DNA of 64,000 nucleotides from NCBI GenBank assembly GCA_015657505.1, contig JADLKE010000002.1, positions 190,067 to 254,066 of the forward strand, read 5' to 3'. Under the pieces are notes generated by a model that saw only the letters and a program-made list of their open reading frames with translations, had not been told where the DNA came from and ran no database searches. A program made the translations under genes and the position numbers. The first letter of the stretch is position 1, and every line of letters starts with the position of its first letter. The DNA comes from Ignavibacteria bacterium (lineage in GTDB: Bacteria; Bacteroidota; Ignavibacteria; Tepidaquicellales; Tepidaquicellaceae). This document shows positions 1,599 through 51,115 of this stretch, one piece after another.

Positions 1599-3506
1599 CT
1601 ATCGTATGTAAATCATCTTTTTCGAATCGATGTCGCTGCCCGATTTCAGGACGCAGAAGTAAATACCCGACGCGAGATTTACGGGTGTGAATTTCACCTG
1701 AAAGTTGCCGGGCCTCATTTTAGCGTTCACGAGTACAGCAATTTCCCTTCCGCGCACGTCGTAAACTGTAAGCGAAACGTCGTCGTACTTGTTTACGTGA
1801 TACGCTATCACAGTAGCGGGATTGAACGGATTCGGATAATTCTGATCGAGCCTGAAATCTATCGGCTCGACGGGGTCGTCTCCCGTTTTATCCTTAAGAA
1901 TGAAGTTTCCCGGGTCGAACGTCAGCCGCAAAGGCTCGCCCGTTATAGTAAAAACGAACGTCTGTGTCTGCGAGTTGTTGAACACGGTAACGGTAGTGTC
2001 GCCCGATTTCGTTTCAACCTTCACGTCAACAGGCATCGTGAAAAAAACGGGATTCGTGTTAACCGCCTGTTCAACGAGAAGATTCACATCGTAAGAGTTT
2101 CCGCCCACCTGCGACTTGCCCCAAGTGATTCTATATTTCGGATATTTTTCCCCGTATATCCATTCGTAAAAGAAATAACCGAGGCTCTTCCCGTATTTGC
2201 TTTCGGCGATTCTCTGGAAGTCTTCCGTTACTGCTGTACCGTAAGCGTGAAGTGTGTCGTTAACGTATGATTTCATTATGTCATAAAACAACGAATCGCC
2301 AGTTACGCCTCTCAGCATGTGAAGTATGACACCGCCCTTATAATATGAACGGTTCGTGTTGAATATCTCGCTTATTGAACCCGCGTTCTGGACATAAACC
2401 GTTCCGACCGCGTTTTTCGCGCTGTTCATTTTCTGCAGCATGAAATAATCATACGCTTCCCTGCCCTGCGAAGCTTCTATATAAACCGCTTCCGAATAAG
2501 TGGCGAAACCTTCGTTGAGCCAGATGTGATGGAAGTCCCTGCAAGTGACCTTGTCTCCGTACCACTGATGAGACAACTCGTGCGCTATTACTCCCGGCGT
2601 GAACGCTCCCATCGACGAAATCGTCTGGTGTTCCATTCCGCCTCCCCATCCGAACTGCGCGTGCCCGTATTTTTCCCTTATGAAAGGATACTGAGAATAT
2701 TTTTCCGAAAAGACTCTCATCATTTCAGGCGTCTCGTCAAGATTGCTCTTTAAACTGCCGAGATATTCAGGATAAACATAATGCGTGAGTGTAAGTGAAT
2801 CAGTCTGCGAATATCTGAAATAATTTTTATATAGTGCGTAGTTAGAAACCGCGATGGATATGAGGTAACTCGCTATCGGGTAAGAACCCTTCCACCTGTA
2901 CGTAGTCGTATTGTCGGGATTCGTTATTGTTTCTTTAAGAAGCCCGTTCGAAACCGCGGTCAGCGACGACGGGCAGGTTACCCACACATCGGAAGAATCT
3001 GCTTTATCGGCCGGCGCGTTCTTGTTAGGAAACCAGTCGGACGAGCCGTACGGCTCGCTTAGACTCCATATCGAAGGCTCCGGGCCGTGTGATGAAAAAA
3101 CAAAACTTCCGTATCCCGTCGCGGGAGGCAGTCCCCTGTAATAAACGTTAACGGCGAACTCTGACGAAAGAGAATTTAAATTGACGCGAAGTACGTCGTT
3201 CGAATGCGTGAACGACCCGATGTTCGCACCCGTAACGGAATCAACCGTCAGGGAATTTGCAAGATTAAGAAAAAATGAATTCCCCGGCGTTATAAATTTT
3301 CCGTTTACCGTTGTTATTCCTTTTATGTTGTCGGGATTGATTGATAGTTTTAACTGAAGTTTGTAATAGGTAACGTCAATCGTTGTATCGGTTTGTATGA
3401 CGGAAGAATTGTCTCCCGCACCCGAATAAAAAGGCAGCGTGGACTTATCACCCGCGGCGTGAAAACCGAGATAATAGAACAACAATAATGCGATTGTAAG
3501 TTTCAT
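1599..3506 (-). CDS. M1-family zinc metallopeptidase with T9SS C-terminal sorting domain
   Basis: 635-aa ORF with a signal peptide. GGGMEHQ and HELSHQWYGD...WLNEGFATY form the M1 signature. The C-terminal LDQNYPNPFNPATVI...KKMIYIR is a T9SS CTD. Confidence 0.88.
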   Translation of the reverse strand: MKLTIALLLFYYLGFHAAGDKSTLPFYSGAGDNSSVIQTDTTIDVTYYKLQLKLSINPDNIKGITTVNGKFITPGNSFFLNLANSLTVDSVTGANIGSFTHSNDVLRVNLNSLSSEFAVNVYYRGLPPATGYGSFVFSSHGPEPSIWSLSEPYGSSDWFPNKNAPADKADSSDVWVTCPSSLTAVSNGLLKETITNPDNTTTYRWKGSYPIASYLISIAVSNYALYKNYFRYSQTDSLTLTHYVYPEYLGSLKSNLDETPEMMRVFSEKYSQYPFIREKYGHAQFGWGGGMEHQTISSMGAFTPGVIAHELSHQWYGDKVTCRDFHHIWLNEGFATYSEAVYIEASQGREAYDYFMLQKMNSAKNAVGTVYVQNAGSISEIFNTNRSYYKGGVILHMLRGVTGDSLFYDIMKSYVNDTLHAYGTAVTEDFQRIAESKYGKSLGYFFYEWIYGEKYPKYRITWGKSQVGGNSYDVNLLVEQAVNTNPVFFTMPVDVKVETKSGDTTVTVFNNSQTQTFVFTITGEPLRLTFDPGNFILKDKTGDDPVEPIDFRLDQNYPNPFNPATVIAYHVNKYDDVSLTVYDVRGREIAVLVNAKMRPGNFQVKFTPVNLASGIYFCVLKSGSDIDSKKMIYIR

Positions 3507-3785
3507 CTATCACTTTCTTGTATAATGTATAATTTTATTTCGTATTAATAAATTCCAAAAGCCGCAATTTTTATTTGACGGCGGGATTCGCTTAAACCAC
3601 TAAAATGGAAAATCCGACACGTCGGACACGGGCAAAATCAGGAAGACAATTATATTCACGATCGGGTTAGCAATATATGTCAATACATTGATATGGATGT
3701 CAGAAAATTGCATAATATTTCCCAATAATGACATATATTTCAAATACCCCCTTTAAAAACAATCAATAATCGCACTTTTCAAATT

Positions 3786-4321: not shown

Positions 4322-4355
4322 ACGGAACTGCCTGCGGATACGCGGGTAGTTCCGT
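4322..4355 (+). terminator. strong stem-loop between hsp20 and dnaK (terminator/attenuator or processing site)
   Basis: ACGGAACT(G)CCTGCG-GATA-CGCGGG(T)AGTTCCGT gives about 15 paired positions. It is followed only by a TTT run and lies 26 nt before the dnaK ATG. Confidence 0.45.
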
Positions 4356-4381
4356 TTAAAGAAAGTGAGGCTTTTAAATTA

Positions 4382-6319
4382 ATGGGAAAAATTATTGGAA
4401 TAGATTTAGGTACGACTAACTCGTGCGTTGCGGTTATGGAAGGTAACGATCCTGTTGTTATACCAAACTCGGAAGGTATGCGGACAACCCCCTCGGTTGT
4501 CGCGTTCACCAAAACAGGAGAGCGGCTCGTCGGAGACCCTGCTAAAAGGCAGGCTGTCACTAATCCGACGAACACTGTATTCTCCATAAAAAGATTCATG
4601 GGGCGCAAGTTCGACGAAGTCGGAATGGAAATCGGCGAAGTCCCGTATAAAGTGATCAGAGGCGATAACGATGTAGCGCGCGTGGAAATCGATGACAAGA
4701 GCACGAATCAGAAACGCGTCTATTCTCCGCCTGAAATCTCCGCTATGGTTCTTCAGAAAATGAAGAAGACAGCGGAAGATTATCTCGGACAGACGGTAAC
4801 CGAAGCGGTCATAACCGTTCCGGCTTACTTCAACGACGCTCAGAGACAGGCGACAAAAGACGCGGGCAAGATAGCGGGACTCGACGTGAAAAGAATAATC
4901 AACGAACCGACAGCGGCGGCGCTTGCTTACGGTCTCGACAAGAAGAAAAAGAACCACAAGGTGGCGGTGTTCGACCTTGGCGGTGGAACGTTCGATATCT
5001 CTATTCTCGAACTCGGCGACGGAGTATTTGAAGTAAAATCAACGAACGGCGACGGGCACCTCGGAGGCGATGACTTTGACCAGAGACTTATTGAATATCT
5101 CGCGGAAGAATTCCAGAAGAAGGAAGGAATCAATTTAAGAAAAGACCCGATGGCATTGCAGAGACTGAAAGAAGCCGCAGAAAACGCGAAGAAGCAGTTG
5201 TCAACAAGTTCGCAGACCGAGGTTAACCTTCCGTACATTACTGCGACAGCCGACGGTCCGAAGTTCCTTCTCGAAACAATAACGCGCGCGAAGTTTGAAT
5301 CGCTCGTCAGTGACCTGGTCGAAAGTACCGTCGCTCCGTGTGAAAAGGCGCTTAGGGATTCGGGATTCAGCCTGAATGAAATCGACGAAGTTATTTTAGT
5401 AGGCGGCTCGACAAGGATTCCAATGGTTCAGGAAAGAGTGAAACAGATTTTCGGAAAAGAGCCGCATAAAGGCGTCAACCCGGACGAAGTCGTGGCGATA
5501 GGCGCTTCGATTCAGGGCGGCGTTCTCGCTGGCGACGTGACGGACGTGCTTCTTCTCGACGTTACACCGCTTTCTCTCGGCATCGAAACACTCGGAGGCG
5601 TCATGACGAAACTCATAGAAGCTAACACGACGATTCCGACTAAGAAGTCGCAGATATTTTCCACGGCGGGCGACAATCAGCCTTCGGTTGAAATTCACGT
5701 CCTTCAGGGCGAAAGACCTATGGCAATGGATAACCGCACGCTCGGAAGATTCCATCTCGACGGGATTCCTCCCGCACCGAGAGGAGTTCCGCAAATCGAA
5801 GTTACATTCGACATAGACGCGAACGGCATTCTTCACGTTACGGCGAAAGATATGGGCACGGGAAAAACGCAGGACATCAGAATTACACACTCGAGCGGAC
5901 TTACGGATCAGGAAATTGAAAAGATGAAGAAGGACGCGAAGGAGCACGAAGCGGACGACAAGAAGAAGAGAGAGGAAATCAACACTAAGAATCAGGCTGA
6001 CGCGATGATATTTCAGGGTGAAAAACAGTTGAAGGAATTCGAAGGAAAACTCAGCCAGGACGCGAGAGCGAAGATTCAATCCGCAATCGACAGGCTGAAA
6101 GACGCGGTGAAGACAAACAACGCAACGGAAATTAAATCCGCGATGGACCAGTACAACGCAGCCTGGAACGAAGCTTCCTCGCAAATGTACTCTCAGGCGA
6201 AGAATCAGGGATCCGAGCAGGGACAGCAATCCGCCGGTCAGCAGGGCGCGGGCGAACAGAAGAAGGACGACGGCAACGTTGAAAATGCGGACTTCGAAGT
6301 CGTTGACGATAAGAAATAA
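4382..6319 (+). CDS. dnaK: molecular chaperone DnaK (Hsp70)
   Basis: 645 aa with [17 protein letters not shown] and [11 protein letters not shown] motifs and an acidic C-terminal tail. Confidence 0.98.
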
Positions 6320-16010: not shown

Positions 16011-16484
16011 TTACTGCTTCTTGCCTTCGCCTATCTTTTCCTGAAGCGTTATCAGGGCGTGAAGCAGGTTATCGGGACGCGGTGGGCATCCCGCTACGTA
16101 AATATCTACAGGCAGGAACTGGTCAATTCCCTGCACGACGGAATAACTGCGGTACATGCCGCCGGATGAAGTACAGGCGCCCATCGCTATTACCCACTTG
16201 GGGTCAGGCATCTGGTCGTAAATTTTTCTCACGACTTTCGCCATCTTATAGGTTGTTGTTCCCGCCACTATCATAACGTCGCACTGCCTCGGCGAGAACC
16301 TCATAACTTCCGAGCCGAATCTCGCGATGTCAAAGCGCGGAGCCGCGGCAGCCATCATTTCTATCGCGCAGCAGGAAATTCCCATTGGCATCGGCCACAG
16401 CGAATTCTTCCTCGCCCAGTCGATTACGTCGTTGAGTTTTGTGGTTATGAAGCCGTCATTGCCAAGTTTTTCCTCTAATCCCAT
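16011..16484 (-). CDS. nuoB: NADH-quinone oxidoreductase subunit B
   Basis: 157 aa with the Fe-S ligand pattern SCCAIEMM...GACTSSGG...GCPPRP. Confidence 0.95.
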
Positions 16485-16843
16485 TTCAGAACTCCTTTTC
16501 CGTATTCATAAACAAGTCCCGCAATCAGTATGAAAATAAATATTAAAGCGATTATCAGTGAATACATCATTTCTCCTGACGGCAGGCTCAGAAAGGACAC
16601 CGCCCAGGGATAAAGAAACACGATTTCAATGTCGAAAACGATGAAACTCACGGCGACCATATAGTATTTCACCGAAAAACGTTCACGGGCGGTCTGAATC
16701 GGCTCCATACCGCTCTCATACGTTGATTCTTTCTCTTTGTTCGGGTTTCTAGGTCCGAAAAAAACCGTGAATTTAACCATAACGACGGCGAAAATCACCG
16801 CGAATAATCCTATAATCAATATTGGTATATACGATGTGAGCAT
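16475..16843 (-). CDS. nuoA: NADH-quinone oxidoreductase subunit A
   Basis: 122 aa, 3 TM, with YESGMEP...[12 protein letters not shown]. Overlaps nuoB by 10 nt. Confidence 0.92.
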
Positions 16844-46185: not shown

Positions 46186-46223
46186 TATTTTCAAGTAATA
46201 TAAAGTTTAATCCCGGAGGATTG

Positions 46224-46763
46224 ATGAAAAACTTTTTTGCATTCTTTATTTTTCTGTTGCTGGTCAGCGGCTGCATGACAGGCTCCATAGACTACACGAC
46301 GCAGGACGTATTCAATGAAAGCGCGCTCGGAACCATCAAGAACTGGACAATGCAGTACGATACAATTAACGGCAGGATTCTTACGAGCGACCTGCTCGGC
46401 GGGTCGACGGAGACAAAATTCCCCGATTCGACAAGCCCTGAAGAACTGCTCGACGAACCGCCGAAAATTGCCGAAGAGAGAGGCCGGAAACTTGCCGGTA
46501 TGATAAGGTCCGGCATGACTTCGAAGATTTCCGATACAGGGGAAGGCGTAATCAAGATTTCGAGACCTTATTTCAAGGACAAATTCATTTTACACACAAA
46601 GGTGACGTTTCTTGACAACGCCAACAATAAGATTGCCGAAATGGATTTATTCAACAGATGCGAATTTGACGGGCAGAAAACCACTATGGCGAATAACGCG
46701 ATGCACGATCTAGATTACGCGAGATACTGCGCGTTCAAAATTCACGAACTTATCGGGAAATAG
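46224..46763 (+). CDS. lipoprotein, unknown function
   Basis: Lipobox LLLVSGC with a GGAGGA Shine-Dalgarno site upstream. No family recognised. Confidence 0.5.
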   Translation: MKNFFAFFIFLLLVSGCMTGSIDYTTQDVFNESALGTIKNWTMQYDTINGRILTSDLLGGSTETKFPDSTSPEELLDEPPKIAEERGRKLAGMIRSGMTSKISDTGEGVIKISRPYFKDKFILHTKVTFLDNANNKIAEMDLFNRCEFDGQKTTMANNAMHDLDYARYCAFKIHELIGK

Positions 46764-46859: not shown

Positions 46860-48149
46860 CTATCTTAGCGAATGCACTTTATTCAAGACGGGAACATCAA
46901 TTTCATCTTTGGGTATTCTTTTTACGAATTCCTCTCTGAATTTTTTCACGGTCCATTTAACCGGCCAGGCGGCGGCGTCACCGAGCGCGCAGATTGTATT
47001 GCCCTCAATGTTTTGAGCAACCGATGTGAGCAGTTCGAGATCGTTAAGCCTTCCCTTGCCGTCATCAATTCTTTTCAGAACTCTCAAAAGCCATCCGGTC
47101 CCTTCCCTGCAGGGCGTGCATTGTCCGCAGGATTCGTGATAATAAAATTTCGCGATTCTTATTAGTACTTTAAGAATATCCGTATCCTCGTCCATAACCA
47201 TTACGCCTGCCGTTCCTATCGAAGAACCGAATTCCTTGAGACTTTCATTGTCCATGTTCGCTTTCAGGCATTCCTCTTTCGTGAGAGGCGGCATCGATGA
47301 GCCGCCGGGTATAACCATTTTGATTTCTTTGCCGCCGGTAATTCCGCCGCAGTAATCTTCGATTATTTTCATAAGCGGCGTGCCTGTCGGAAGTTCATAG
47401 ACTCCCGGTTTGTTCACGTGACCGCTCACCCCGAACAGGAGCGTGCCGGGATGTTTCGGCGCGCCTATTTTCGAGAACCACTCTGCTCCGTTCTTGATTA
47501 TTTCGGGAACGTTCGCGAGAGTTTCGATATTGTTTATAGTCGTCGGGCATCCCCACAGTCCGTTAGCCGCGGGAAACGGAGGCTTGACTCTCGGATAGCC
47601 GCGCTTGCCTTCGATTGAATTCATAAGCGCCGATTCTTCGCCGCAGATGTAAGCTCCCGCTCCGCGGTGAATGTAAACATCGGTTGAAAAATCTGTGCCG
47701 AGTATGTTTTTCCCTATGTACCCTTTTTTATAAGCATCGTCAATCGCAGCCTGAAGCAGATTTATCCATTTGTAATACTCGCCTCTTATGTAAACGTATG
47801 CGGATTTTATTCCCATCGCGTAACAAGCAAGAAGAACTCCTTCGATAAACTGGTGCGGATTTTTCTCAAATATTTCCCTGTCCTTGAAACTTCCTGGTTC
47901 CGACTCATCGCCGTTACAGCACAGGTATTTAGGCTTGTCGCTGTTCTTGGGCATGAATGTCCACTTAAGACCCGTCGGAAAACAGGCGCCGCCCCTGCCT
48001 CTGAGGTTTGAGTTCTTCACCTCGTTAGTTACTTCATCGGGGCTCATTTCTTTCAAAGCCTTCCTGAATGCGGAATAACCGCCGTTCGACTCGTAAACAC
48101 CTATCCTGTGTAAATCGGGTATATCTTTTAAAATTATTTTCATTTTCAT
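46860..48149 (-). CDS. nuoF: NADH-quinone oxidoreductase subunit F
   Basis: 429 aa with GRGGACFPTG (FMN site), GAGAYICGEESAL and ESCGQCTPCREG (4Fe-4S). Confidence 0.96.
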   Translation of the reverse strand: MKMKIILKDIPDLHRIGVYESNGGYSAFRKALKEMSPDEVTNEVKNSNLRGRGGACFPTGLKWTFMPKNSDKPKYLCCNGDESEPGSFKDREIFEKNPHQFIEGVLLACYAMGIKSAYVYIRGEYYKWINLLQAAIDDAYKKGYIGKNILGTDFSTDVYIHRGAGAYICGEESALMNSIEGKRGYPRVKPPFPAANGLWGCPTTINNIETLANVPEIIKNGAEWFSKIGAPKHPGTLLFGVSGHVNKPGVYELPTGTPLMKIIEDYCGGITGGKEIKMVIPGGSSMPPLTKEECLKANMDNESLKEFGSSIGTAGVMVMDEDTDILKVLIRIAKFYYHESCGQCTPCREGTGWLLRVLKRIDDGKGRLNDLELLTSVAQNIEGNTICALGDAAAWPVKWTVKKFREEFVKRIPKDEIDVPVLNKVHSLR

Positions 48150-48165
48150 TTCTTGTTTTATTATT

Positions 48166-48193
48166 CACCACAGAGAACACAGAGTACACAGAG
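48166..48193. repeat. inverted repeat, left copy
   Basis: CACCACAGAGAACACAGAGTACACAGAG, with a 9-nt CACAGAGNN periodicity. Confidence 0.85.
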
Positions 48194-48194
48194 A

Positions 48195-48566
48195 TTACAC
48201 GACTCTTCTTTTTATTCCATCCGTCAATATCTTTGTGTTGAAATTTATTAATAGCCCTGTTCTGATATTTGCTAGTTTTAAATATGATATTAACTGGGCC
48301 TCATGAATCGGCATCAAGGATTCCACTGATTTTATTTCAACGATAACATCCTTATTTACAAGTACATCCAATCTGTAACCGCAATCTAATTTAACTTCCT
48401 TATAAACCAAAGGTATCGGTTTTTGCCGTTCAACTATAAATCCTGCCTGAATCAATTCATAACACAGGCATTCCTCATAAGCACTTTCAAGTAAACCAGG
48501 TCCCAATGCTTTATGAACATTAATCGCACAACCGATTATCTTTTCAGTTAATGGATCCGTGTCCAT
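48195..48566 (-). CDS. GxxExxY family protein (PD-(D/E)XK-like)
   Basis: 123 aa with IIGCAINVHKALGPGLLESAYEECLCYEL...YRLDVLVNKDVIVEIKSV...PIHEAQLISYLKL...GLLINF, the classic family pattern. Confidence 0.9.
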   Translation of the reverse strand: MDTDPLTEKIIGCAINVHKALGPGLLESAYEECLCYELIQAGFIVERQKPIPLVYKEVKLDCGYRLDVLVNKDVIVEIKSVESLMPIHEAQLISYLKLANIRTGLLINFNTKILTDGIKRRVV

Positions 48567-48587
48567 ATTTCTGCTCTTTATATAAAT

Positions 48588-49103
48588 TTAGTTTTTCTCT
48601 GTGGTCTCTGTGTTCTCTGTGGTGATACTTTTTCCGAATTTTTTCAGCAAATTATCGATTATGACAGTATCAAGGTTTTCGTAATATTCCTTGTTGTTCA
48701 CCTGCATCATCGGCGCAGTCGCGCAGGAGCCGAGGCATTCTACTTCTTCAATCGTGAACATTCCGTCTGCAGTCGTTTCGTTGTTTTTTATTCCGAGTTT
48801 CTCCGATACGTAATTATACAGTTCATACCCGCCCCTCAGCATGCAGGAAACGTTCGTGCATATCTGCAGGTGATATTTTCCTCTCGGCTGGTTGTTGAAC
48901 ATCGTATAAAACGACACAACACCGAGAATGTGCTCATAAGGAACGCCGAGCAAATCACCCGCATATTTCATCGAGTCCGGCGAAATCCATCCTTCCTTTT
49001 CCTGAACCATCCAGAGCACTGGAAGCAGCGCCGCGCGGGCATCGGGGTAATGCGACTTGATCTCTTCTATTCTTTTTAATTCTTCTTCGTTGAATAACTG
49101 CAT
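48588..49103 (-). CDS. nuoE: NADH-quinone oxidoreductase subunit E
   Basis: 171 aa with the 2Fe-2S ligands CTNVSC...CLGSC. The C-terminal ...TTENTETTEKN is encoded by the repeat. Confidence 0.93.
   Translation of the reverse strand: MQLFNEEELKRIEEIKSHYPDARAALLPVLWMVQEKEGWISPDSMKYAGDLLGVPYEHILGVVSFYTMFNNQPRGKYHLQICTNVSCMLRGGYELYNYVSEKLGIKNNETTADGMFTIEEVECLGSCATAPMMQVNNKEYYENLDTVIIDNLLKKFGKSITTENTETTEKN
48597..48624. repeat. inverted repeat, right copy (inside the 3' end of nuoE)
   Basis: CTCTGTGGTCTCTGTGTTCTCTGTGGTG is the reverse complement of the left copy with 2 mismatches. Confidence 0.85.
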
Positions 49104-49127
49104 TCGGATTAATAATATGTTTTCAAA

Positions 49128-50405
49128 TTATTTGTCGGCTTCTCCCATAACGGGATCAATTCCGCCGATTATAACGACTGAATCGGAAATAAGACTGTCT
49201 TTAAGCATAACGGGAATTGCCTGAAGATTGCAGAATGACGGCGAGTGTATCTTTGTCCTGAAAGGCTTGCCGCTGCCGTCGCTTACTATATAAAAACCAA
49301 GTTCGCCTTTTGACGATTCAACGGCGCTGTACGACTCTCCGACAGGCGGATTCTGCCCGAAATTAATCAGCATGAAATCGTATATCAATTCTTCCATTTT
49401 TGTGTATATCTTTTCCTTGCGTGGAAGAGATTTCTTCGGCGATAAAGCGTTCACGGGTCCCTTCGGCATTTTTTCAATGCACTGCCTTATTATTTTTGCG
49501 GACTGGTACATTTCCTCGAACCTAATCCAGAACCTTGCGAGACTGTCGCTTTCGGTTGTCGTCGGCACGTCAAAATCAACTTTATCATACGCGAGATACG
49601 GACTGTCTTTTCTTAAATCGCAATCGACACCTGCCGCGCGAAGTATCGGTCCCGTAATCCCGTAATTAATCACGTCTTCCTTCGACATGTATCCGATTCC
49701 CTCAAGCCTGTCGACGAATACCCTGTTCCTCTCTATGATATCCCGCATCTCTTTCAGATAACCCGGGAACTCGTCCGTGAACTTATGAATCGCGGCGATT
49801 GCCTCGTCCGTGATGTCCTGAGCCACTCCTCCGATTCTCGAATAAGAAGTCGTGAATCTGACGCCGATATACATGTCATAAATATCGAGTATTTTTTCCC
49901 TTTCGCGCATTGCCCATAAGAAAGGCGTCAGCCCTCCAGTGTCCATCACGGTCGTACCGTACGCGATCAAGTGCGATTGTATTCTGCCGAGTTCGGCCGA
50001 GAGAGTCCTGAGATACTTTGACCTTTCGGGAATCTCGAGATTCAGAAGTTTTTCCACTGCGAGTGTGTACGCGATGTTATTAGCGACGGGCTGAAGATAA
50101 TCAAGCCTGTCGGTATGCGGAATGAACTCGTGATACGACATGTTCTCCGCGAGTTTCTCATAACCCCTGTGAAGATACCCGAGGTCGGGAACCGCCTTCT
50201 TTATGGTTTCCCCGTCGAGACTCAGCAGCAGCCTTAAGACTCCGTGTGTAGCGGGATGCTGCGGTCCCATGTTAAGCACCATTTCATTCTCAAGCGCATC
50301 ATTAAATTCAAGGCTCAAATCCTGTGACTCAAGCGCTTCCAGAATTTTTGATTTTGGAATGCTCGGGTCGTTTTTCTTCAGTTTTTCGTATACGGTGTGA
50401 GGCAT
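49128..50405 (-). CDS. nuoD: NADH-quinone oxidoreductase subunit D
   Basis: 425 aa with NMGPQHPATHGVLRL and a C-terminal DPVMGEADK-type ending. Confidence 0.96.
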   Translation of the reverse strand: MPHTVYEKLKKNDPSIPKSKILEALESQDLSLEFNDALENEMVLNMGPQHPATHGVLRLLLSLDGETIKKAVPDLGYLHRGYEKLAENMSYHEFIPHTDRLDYLQPVANNIAYTLAVEKLLNLEIPERSKYLRTLSAELGRIQSHLIAYGTTVMDTGGLTPFLWAMREREKILDIYDMYIGVRFTTSYSRIGGVAQDITDEAIAAIHKFTDEFPGYLKEMRDIIERNRVFVDRLEGIGYMSKEDVINYGITGPILRAAGVDCDLRKDSPYLAYDKVDFDVPTTTESDSLARFWIRFEEMYQSAKIIRQCIEKMPKGPVNALSPKKSLPRKEKIYTKMEELIYDFMLINFGQNPPVGESYSAVESSKGELGFYIVSDGSGKPFRTKIHSPSFCNLQAIPVMLKDSLISDSVVIIGGIDPVMGEADK

Positions 50406-50409
50406 AATT

Positions 50410-50895
50410 CTATTTTTTCGGCAAATTAATTGAACCCGGAATTCCCATCAGAGGAAAATCTTTTCTCAAAGGATAATATTCAAACTCTTCGGGCATGTAA
50501 ATTCTTCTTAAGTCGGGATGCCCCGTGAAGACTATTCCAAACATATCATAGGCTTCCCTTTCATACCAGTTAACTGATTTCCACAGGTTCGTCAACGTAG
50601 GAGTTTCCGGTTTCTTATTGTCTTCTATGATGACTTTTACGAAAATCCTGTCCCTGTACTTAAGCGAATACAAACTGTAAATCACTTCGAATCTGTTTTT
50701 CTTCGTAAACCTGTCAACGCCTACCGTGTCCCTGCACTGTTCGAACGAGATTGACCCCTCATTTTTCAGTACTTCACATATTTTCAGAACATTTTCAGGA
50801 GACGCTATGATTCCGGGCGTACCATTGACGTCGTAAAACTCGACACCTAAACCGTTAAGTTTCTCTTTTATAATATTTAATCTCTCTTCGTTCAT
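50410..50895 (-). CDS. nuoC: NADH-quinone oxidoreductase subunit C
   Basis: WYEREAYDMFGIVFTGHPDLRRI motif. I prefer the ATG at 50895 (MNEERL...). The track start 50967 adds a hydrophobic AT-rich leader. Confidence 0.9.
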   Translation of the reverse strand: MNEERLNIIKEKLNGLGVEFYDVNGTPGIIASPENVLKICEVLKNEGSISFEQCRDTVGVDRFTKKNRFEVIYSLYSLKYRDRIFVKVIIEDNKKPETPTLTNLWKSVNWYEREAYDMFGIVFTGHPDLRRIYMPEEFEYYPLRKDFPLMGIPGSINLPKK

Positions 50896-51115
50896 AACGT
50901 AATTTCGTAAAAAATAGGTTATAAGGCGTATAATTGAAATAACAAAATAAGGAAACTGAAAATTCAAAGAGCACAGGAAAATTTGTATTTAATTTTGTTT
51001 TGATTGCGAGTGAATTTCATTGCGATGTTTCCTTATCCGGCATCCGGAAATCACAGATTCATAAAAATAATGGATTTTATTGATTCCAAATTTGTTATCC
51101 GAATAAAGAGGAAAA

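Follow-up and report, generated by a model that had tools for sequence, protein, structure and literature searches.

An inverted-array cassette carrying a predicted GxxExxY nuclease gene between nuoE and nuoF of an Ignavibacteria bacterium, and its relatives in other bacterial phyla

The 64,000-nucleotide window analyzed here (Ignavibacteria bacterium, contig JADLKE010000002.1, positions 190,067 to 254,066) carries, between the complex I genes nuoE and nuoF, a 460 bp cassette in which a single small gene of the GxxExxY (PDDEXK_3) family is boxed by two inverted arrays of a 9-nt repeat. On balance, we consider it somewhat probable that this cassette is one copy of a widespread selfish, promoterless nuclease cassette that is bounded by foldback arms and decays to hairpins without the open reading frame (ORF). 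A preliminary description of this DNA had proposed a mobile or recombination-delivered cassette, and that proposal gained support from turnover of the cassette at the nuo site, from the occurrence of the same structure in unrelated contexts, and from the arrays that flank most family members sampled elsewhere. We infer the mobility of the cassette from comparisons of sequence.

A repeat search of the window identified two arms of 30 nt each that are 93% complementary and lie 401 nt apart. Their 28-nt cores (48166-48193 and 48597-48624), which had already been recognized as inverted repeats built of 9-nt periods, are 26/28 identical, and the arms extend beyond them to the full 30 nt. The unit in both arms is CACAGAGNN, present as three 9-nt copies per arm; on the sense strand the 3' arm, which follows the TAA of the GxxExxY gene, reads TCTCTGTGTACTCTGTGTTCTCTGTGGTGA. 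When up to two mismatches were allowed, the pattern CACAGAGNNCACAGAG had four matches in the window, every one of them in the arms (mean of 0.15 in shuffled sequence, with 0/100 shuffles reaching four), and the bare heptamer occurred once elsewhere in the window. A general array detector found no arrays in shuffled sequence. The spacers are short, about 20 nt. The bracketed ORF of 123 aa is co-oriented with the nuo genes, as noted earlier, and its earlier assignment as a GxxExxY gene was confirmed by matches to PF13366 (PDDEXK_3; E 1.6e-43, 148.2 bits against a cut-off of 22) and to TIGR04256 (GxxExxY; E 1.7e-45, 154.1 bits against a cut-off of 35).

The arrangement is not peculiar to this genome. 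From a pattern-based scan we sampled 80 metagenomic GxxExxY loci, 76 of which could be scored. Inverted heptamer arrays were present on both sides of the ORF in 58 of the 76, on one side in 13 and on neither side in five; random placements in the same loci had arrays on both sides in 0/84 cases. The preliminary description had allowed that the repeats might occur nowhere else and that their association with the ORF might not recur, and neither is the case. The same structure was found in independent assemblies and in the isolate genome of Chloroflexus sp. Y-396-1. The repeat unit is C-R-C-N-R-A-G, with subtypes that include CACAGAG, CGCAGAG, CGCCGAG, CACGAAG, CACGGAG and CAGTGAG; the search expression fixed heptamer positions 1, 6 and 7 and limited positions 2 and 5 to purines, and informative statistics are confined to positions 2-5. 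Units repeat with a period of 8-10 nt (9 being the commonest, then 8, then 10), most arms hold three units, and the array has a conserved outer end, TT(C/A/T)AC, which runs directly into the first C of the heptamer. The arrays hug the ORF, at median distances of about 25 nt upstream and about 17 nt downstream of the aligned region.

Within a locus, the unit subtype is shared by all units of both arms: positions 2 and 5 agree at 93-97% within loci vs 49-74% between loci. Heptamer position 4 is loosely constrained and differs freely between arms. Identity of the GxxExxY proteins weakly tracks unit type (62.1% vs 59.3%, a difference reached by 0/2000 permutations). When cargo was examined from the side of the repeats, strong inverted repeats were seen to flank 34 ORFs of 80-260 aa, and 28 of these were GxxExxY genes; the remaining ORFs were considered as alternative cargo and rejected, being ordinary genes between separate hairpins or other repeats. 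We tested 44 cassettes for target-site duplications. The direct repeat immediately outside the arrays was 0 nt in 25 cassettes, 1 nt in 16, 2 nt in two and 3 nt in one, so that no target-site duplications were detected at these 44 cassettes and direct repeats were at chance level.

Pairs of cassettes in different surroundings indicate where the unit ends. The cassettes of L130 and L133 are 82% identical in nucleotide sequence and sit in unrelated flanks, with the similarity starting and stopping at the outer ends of the arrays, and L189 and L206 behave in the same way. Judged from these alignments, the unit that is moved or exchanged is bounded by the outer ends of the arrays.

The nuoE-nuoF junction itself provides a series of related loci. 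Loci L001-L004, with a NuoE 92% identical to that of the window, have the same cassette and tail with CACAGAG arrays, and L212 (NuoE of 171 aa with the tail HFTTEDTEITEKS) has the same cassette type, also with CACAGAG arrays and with a GxxExxY protein 90% identical. Locus L209 (NuoE 89-90%) and locus L005 (NuoE 81-83%) each have a GxxExxY gene with CACAAAG arrays located 3' of the nuoE stop. Comparing L209 with L005, protein identity is 88% for NuoD, 82% for NuoE, 91.5% for NuoF and 86% for GxxExxY, and the cassette appears to have been inherited vertically in this lineage. Comparing the window with L209, identity is 92% for NuoD, 89% for NuoE and 92.5% for NuoF, whereas that of GxxExxY is 58.5%. 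Because the host proteins are 89-92% identical while the GxxExxY proteins are so divergent and the arrays differ in type (CACAAAG vs CACAGAG), we conclude that the cassette in the window lineage was replaced at the nuo site, arms included, by a different member of the family.

In three more distant loci the junction contains no ORF. In L006 and L207 a solo array of the left type survives in degenerate form within the NuoE tail, immediately upstream of the nuoF ATG, and L219 retains a solo right-type array, CTTAGTG TT CTTAGTG AA CTCAGTGGTGAAAAT, spanning the nuoE stop. The arrays lie at 2975-3015 in L219, 3495-3530 in L006 and 2445-2483 in L207, with the nuoF start within a few nt in all three. 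The preliminary description had regarded relatives that keep the repeat-encoded NuoE tail without the ORF as a point against insertion. Such relatives exist in part, as a left array in L006 and L207 and a right array in L219, and we read these solo arrays as probable relics of lost cassettes rather than as counter-evidence to insertion.

The cassette has also altered the gene upstream of it. The sense codons at the end of nuoE are ATC ACC ACA GAG AAC ACA GAG ACC ACA GAG AAA AAC TAA, in which the upstream arm encodes the residues ITTENTETTE, and about 12 C-terminal residues of NuoE and the stop are supplied by the cassette. The earlier claim that the repeat encodes the end of NuoE and its stop codon therefore stands for these ten residues. 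It does not extend to the two final codons (K, N) or to the stop, all of which fall outside the 28-nt repeat, in the part of the cassette that separates the arm from the GxxExxY ATG. Where the coding sequence of a NuoE relative contains no array, the protein terminates 10-13 residues earlier, and the insertion replaced the end of nuoE here, leaving a repeat-encoded tail. Read-through fusion and chance were considered as origins of the tail and were rejected, as the arm encodes the tail in three related genomes. Elsewhere (P0336, P0260 and P0276; L032 at 1294-1974) gene calls run through in-frame 9-nt arrays, producing fusions or tails on unrelated proteins, such as ...FTTENTEVTED and ...PRRTQRT; this is the same effect as in NuoE, and is either a recurring annotation artefact or a real tail.

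At the downstream end, the 3' arm had been placed 17 nt upstream of the nuoF ATG. The 30-nt arm ends 15 nt from the start given in the ORF list, ATG 48149 (MKMKIILKD). Relatives of NuoF begin MKIILKD or MNIILKD, and by this comparison ATG 48143 is the likelier start, which would put the 3' arm 21 nt upstream of nuoF rather than 15.

Arrays are also found without a gene between them. An exact search for three CACARAG units at 9-nt spacing, using one genome per species, returned at least 120 matches, compared with about two expected by chance (our own estimate). Among the matches listed are Planctomycetota, Acidobacteriota, Chloroflexota, Proteobacteria, Bacteroidota, Verrucomicrobiota, Cyanobacteria and others, and among the same matches 72 arrays have an inverted partner, with loops mostly of 4-200 nt; these pairs are foldback hairpins that lack an ORF and share the (T)CACC outer end. 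In one of the hairpins, at 4329-4513 of a Planctomycetota metagenome-assembled genome (L083), the 135-nt loop still has ~34 codons from the start of a GxxExxY gene (frameshifted) together with C-terminal codons. This internally deleted gene indicates that at least some of the hairpins are deletion derivatives. The cassette decays, by internal deletion or by loss of an arm, to ORF-less foldback hairpins or solo arrays. Chloroflexus strains with an identical GxxExxY protein (P0152) have one to three tandem complete ORF-less hairpin modules upstream and downstream, in a number that depends on the strain, so the repeat modules expand and contract on short time scales. In the Chloroflexus loci L213-L218 (~2600-3000 and 3385-3640), hairpin modules of ~77 nt upstream and right-arm modules downstream vary in number. 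Several contigs (L111, L112, L088 and L109) have at least three separate array hairpins within a few kb, with seven arrays in 1.1 kb on the 1151-nt contig L111, and in some genomes hairpins therefore cluster or amplify locally.

The gene within the cassette is predicted to encode a minimal nuclease of the RecB/Cas4-like PD-(D/E)XK type. The residues E26, D66, E76, K78, Q90 and Y94 are invariant across 31 diverse members, whose identity to the window protein is 61-90%. The motif that names the family corresponds to G23-L-L-E26-S-A-Y29, which, together with D66, E76-I-K78 and Q90...Y94, is invariant or nearly so in the 31 sequences; the E, D, ExK and QxxxY residues correspond to motifs I-IV of RecB-family nucleases. 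An AlphaFold2 model of the window protein had a mean pLDDT of 92.9, and its top neighbors among solved structures in a Foldseek search were lambda exonuclease, Cas4 SSO0001 and the alkaline exonuclease LHK-Exo, all of them weak (E ~0.01). PADLOC returned weak Cas4 matches, the PHROGs library gave no match, and a sequence search of the PDB retrieved no relative. The GxxExxY/PDDEXK_3 family comprises 22,118 clusters at 50% identity (E <= 1e-3), is annotated as function unknown, and is commonly present in many copies per genome. In Steczkiewicz et al. (2012), PF13366 was entered as function unknown with "multiple transfers" (PMC3424549). The best-scoring representatives of the family (P0241-P0245 and similar) are proteins of 270-295 aa with two GxxExxY domains; in P0241, the one inspected, the second domain is without the catalytic D/ExK residues. 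This suggests that the two-domain proteins may be fused pairs of an active and an inactive domain, a hint that the single-domain protein could act as a dimer.

We propose that the GxxExxY gene would be expressed by read-through of the host operon and that the encoded nuclease would recognize the heptamers, both those of its own arms and those of ORF-less copies. The nuclease would then make DNA breaks or process ends, and recombination would copy the cassette in a homing or gene-conversion-like manner, a mode of copying that would fit the lack of target-site duplications. Once transcribed, the arms could also pair into a stem of ~28 bp, perhaps letting the host operon tolerate the insert. The earlier suggestion that the cassette hitch-hikes on complex I transcription remains plausible in this light, as a deduction from the lack of a detectable promoter or terminator, the short spacers and the orientation of neighboring genes. 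Across the sampled loci the ORF was co-oriented with its upstream neighbor in 43/51 cases and with its downstream neighbor in 40/54 (crude gene calls), and the cassettes lodge in short spacers between co-directional genes. A broader reading, which we hold more tentatively and would not yet call probable, is that GxxExxY cassettes and ORF-less heptamer hairpins together constitute unrecognized multi-phylum bacterial foldback transposable elements, whose autonomous form of ~0.46 kb would be mobilized by a minimal RecB/Cas4-like, heptamer-reading nuclease.

The position of the cassette within a transcript also raises the possibility, which we think unlikely, that it acts at the level of RNA, in the way of 23S rRNA intervening sequences or Correia elements. 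RNase III would then cut the arm stem, freeing the GxxExxY mRNA and separating nuoC-E from nuoF, and the heptamer would be incidental. No sigma70-like promoter was found on the sense strand of the cassette region and no terminator was found there, making read-through expression and possible RNase III processing plausible. The predicted fold of the sense RNA pairs the arms (20 + 8 bp), with a minimum free energy of -133.4 kcal/mol vs -97.3 for shuffles (z = -6.7). Like the promoterless, co-oriented cassettes within operons, the ORF-less hairpins lie mostly between co-directional genes. However, selection for RNA pairing should favor G.U over A.C mismatches between the arms, and no such excess was observed on the transcribed strand in either 65 cassettes (75 G.U vs 99 A.C) or 70 hairpins (47 G.U vs 48 A.C). 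The arms of the cassettes are only ~85% matched, position 4 of the heptamer varies freely between them, and the spacers drift without compensation: in the window lineage, left-arm spacer dinucleotides vary without a compensating change in the right arm, so that NuoE reads TTENTETTE, TTENTEVTE or TTEDTEITE. Rfam had no family at the gathering threshold for 18 hairpin loci or in an E-value scan of the window region. Pairing alone also leaves unexplained why each arm uses one heptamer and why the heptamer and its TTCACC end recur across phyla. The conserved feature is the heptamer in every unit of both arms, which suits a site iterated for recognition by a protein better than simple stem formation.

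Alternatively, GxxExxY proteins could be domesticated host factors that act in trans, in the manner of REP/RAYT or Cas6, binding or cutting array hairpins to tune mRNA fate or genome structure, with the protein's own hairpin serving for autoregulation. The very high conservation of the protein, with all catalytic residues intact across phyla, agrees with this, as do the many ORF-less hairpins in operon spacers, the locus-specific unit type that weakly tracks the protein, and the apparently vertical inheritance of the L209/L005 cassettes, in which the GxxExxY identity of 86% falls within the 82-92% of the host proteins. Yet the cassette is replaced at one site between close relatives, occurs in unrelated contexts and leaves decayed copies; the window contains no other array; and the large copy numbers of the family and its published "multiple transfers" (PMC3424549) are both typical of selfish elements. 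We regard a domesticated system as rather improbable. Least credible, and very improbable in our view, is that GxxExxY is an ordinary, vertically inherited accessory gene of complex I whose repeats are incidental low complexity or an assembly artefact. The gene does lie between nuoE and nuoF in every examined locus with a NuoE 83-92% identical, and in one at 74%. But its phylogeny disagrees with that of the host genes, the same arrays accompany family members in unrelated contexts, the arrays are far above chance, and the structure recurs in independent assemblies and in the isolate Chloroflexus sp. Y-396-1.

Several observations weigh against the selfish nuclease cassette that we favor. Protein and unit type are weakly correlated, with host relatedness as a confounder, and the identity of 60-72% among GxxExxY proteins across phyla could also reflect a useful cellular function. 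No ORF remnant was found in 49 of 50 ORF-less hairpin loops, L083 being the only clear case, and most hairpins may have arisen in another way; the hairpin could even be the primary element and the ORF its cargo. Relatives were not found among IMG/VR viral contigs, and no vehicle for transfer was thereby identified. No clean match of an empty with an occupied site in identical flanks was recovered, nor was an array-free nuoE-nuoF junction; since each such junction examined has at least a relic array, long residence and local decay explain part of the pattern.

The cassette shares features with several known systems. Like REP/REPIN-RAYT systems, it has one small nuclease-type gene set between inverted copies of a short repeat, large numbers of inverted doublets without an ORF dispersed in intergenic spacers (a resemblance in architecture only) and no target-site duplications. 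Unlike them, its enzyme is PD-(D/E)XK (RecB/Cas4-like, with PDDEXK_3 as the sole Pfam match) and not Y1 HUH, its arms are tandem heptamer arrays where REP is a single GTAG-headed palindrome, and its heptamer recurs across many phyla where REP sequences are species-specific. Eukaryotic foldback (FB) transposons likewise have terminal inverted repeats composed of short tandem subrepeats, with a variable number of units, a highly variable loop length and copies that mostly lack coding capacity, a few having an ORF. The cassette is bacterial, far smaller (0.06-0.5 kb) and has a 123-aa nuclease as cargo, and its likeness to FB transposons is in the build of the arms. Compared with classical insertion sequences and miniature inverted-repeat transposable elements moved by DDE transposition, the cassette has terminal inverted repeats with a conserved outer end, TT(C/A/T)AC|C, where similarity between copies stops, and it differs in the lack of target-site duplication at the 44 cassettes.

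PD-(D/E)XK homing enzymes are known, for example I-Ssp6803I. Free-standing homing endonuclease genes resemble the cassette as nuclease-only selfish genes in spacers between conserved genes, without target-site duplications, that undergo gain, decay, loss and replacement at one site, and the polymorphism by which homing genes are recognized, with presence, absence or replacement at one fixed intergenic position that conserved genes flank, was observed at the nuo junction. The cassette differs in being bounded by inverted tandem-repeat arrays and in not residing in an intron or intein, and cleavage of the empty allele, which is a trait of homing endonuclease genes, is only proposed for the cassette. 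The ORF-bearing 23S rRNA intervening sequences (S23p/four-helix-bundle) and Correia/NEMIS elements are similarly inverted-repeat inserts that are co-transcribed with an essential host transcript, are tolerated without inactivating host genes, and have arms able to form a long stem that is a plausible RNase III substrate (predicted for the cassette). Unlike the rRNA intervening sequences, the cassette is inserted in an mRNA operon, with nuoE and nuoF on either side, and its ORF belongs to PF13366, not PF05635; unlike both, its arms are periodic heptamers with mismatches that lack the signature of RNA-pairing selection; and unlike Correia elements it has no TA duplication. Integron cassettes are also promoterless single-ORF units co-oriented with their neighbors and probably expressed by read-through. 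They have a single 3' attC, whereas the repeats here are on both sides and inverted, and the nuo cassette stands alone in a housekeeping operon, the kind of site where these cassettes lodge, rather than in a cassette array. No neighboring ORF at 44-53 kb of the window appeared integrase-like, on inspection without a family search of those ORFs. The cassette thus resembles several known systems yet lacks what defines them: it has no Y1 transposase, no target-site duplication and no attC or integrase, and it is not in rRNA.

In open-access literature (PMC, bioRxiv) we found no description of an association between GxxExxY genes and arrays, and a description elsewhere is possible. The cassette is probably of a selfish, inverted-repeat-bounded type, and there is a real chance that it represents a new class of nuclease-driven foldback element. 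A large family of unassigned function would gain a concrete, testable biological role from the observation that its genes are mostly boxed by arrays in a unit that is exchanged and decays. Several annotation problems find an explanation in the same observation: spurious peptides, of which TEDTEDTE and SVSSVV are examples, long intergenic hairpins made of CACAGAG, CGCAGAG or CACGAAG units, real proteins with a C-terminal tail encoded by the repeats, as in NuoE here, and artificial read-through gene fusions. If the nuclease acts on the arrays, the two would form a new and very compact pair of protein and DNA site with sequence-based target recognition. If these are indeed foldback elements, they would be among the smallest autonomous mobile elements known, and the finding would provide a function for more than 20,000 protein clusters and an origin for a common class of intergenic hairpin.

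The features of the cassette and its neighbors in the window are listed in Table 1.

Table 1. Positions of the cassette parts and adjacent complex I genes within the 64,000-nucleotide window
Feature	Position	Strand	Remarks
nuoF	46860-48149	minus	directly 3' of the cassette
Downstream (3') arm	48165-48194	minus	TCTCTGTG TA CTCTGTG TT CTCTGTGGTGA; three units; starts 1 nt past the ORF stop
GxxExxY/PDDEXK_3 ORF	48195-48566	minus	123 aa; between nuoE and nuoF
Inner leader	48567-48595	minus	last two NuoE codons, TAA stop at 48588-48590, then 21 nt to the GxxExxY ATG
Upstream (5') arm	48596-48625	minus	sense: TCACCACAGAG AA CACAGAG AC CACAGAG A; three 9-nt units; inside nuoE
nuoE	48588-49103	minus	171 aa; TIGR01958 match; domain end near residue 156
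nuoD	49128-50405	minus	co-oriented with the GxxExxY ORF

The complex I genes of this genome are split, with nuoA/nuoB-like ORFs at 16011-16843 (minus strand), ~30 kb from nuoC-D-E-F, and the gene 3' of nuoF (46221-46763, plus strand) is convergent with nuoF. The cassette is therefore located in a four-gene nuoCDEF unit (46860-50967) and not in a full nuo operon. In L219, the spacer between nuoD and nuoE is filled at 2400-2435 by (ATGAATT)x5, a repeat with a 7-nt period that is unrelated to the heptamer arrays.

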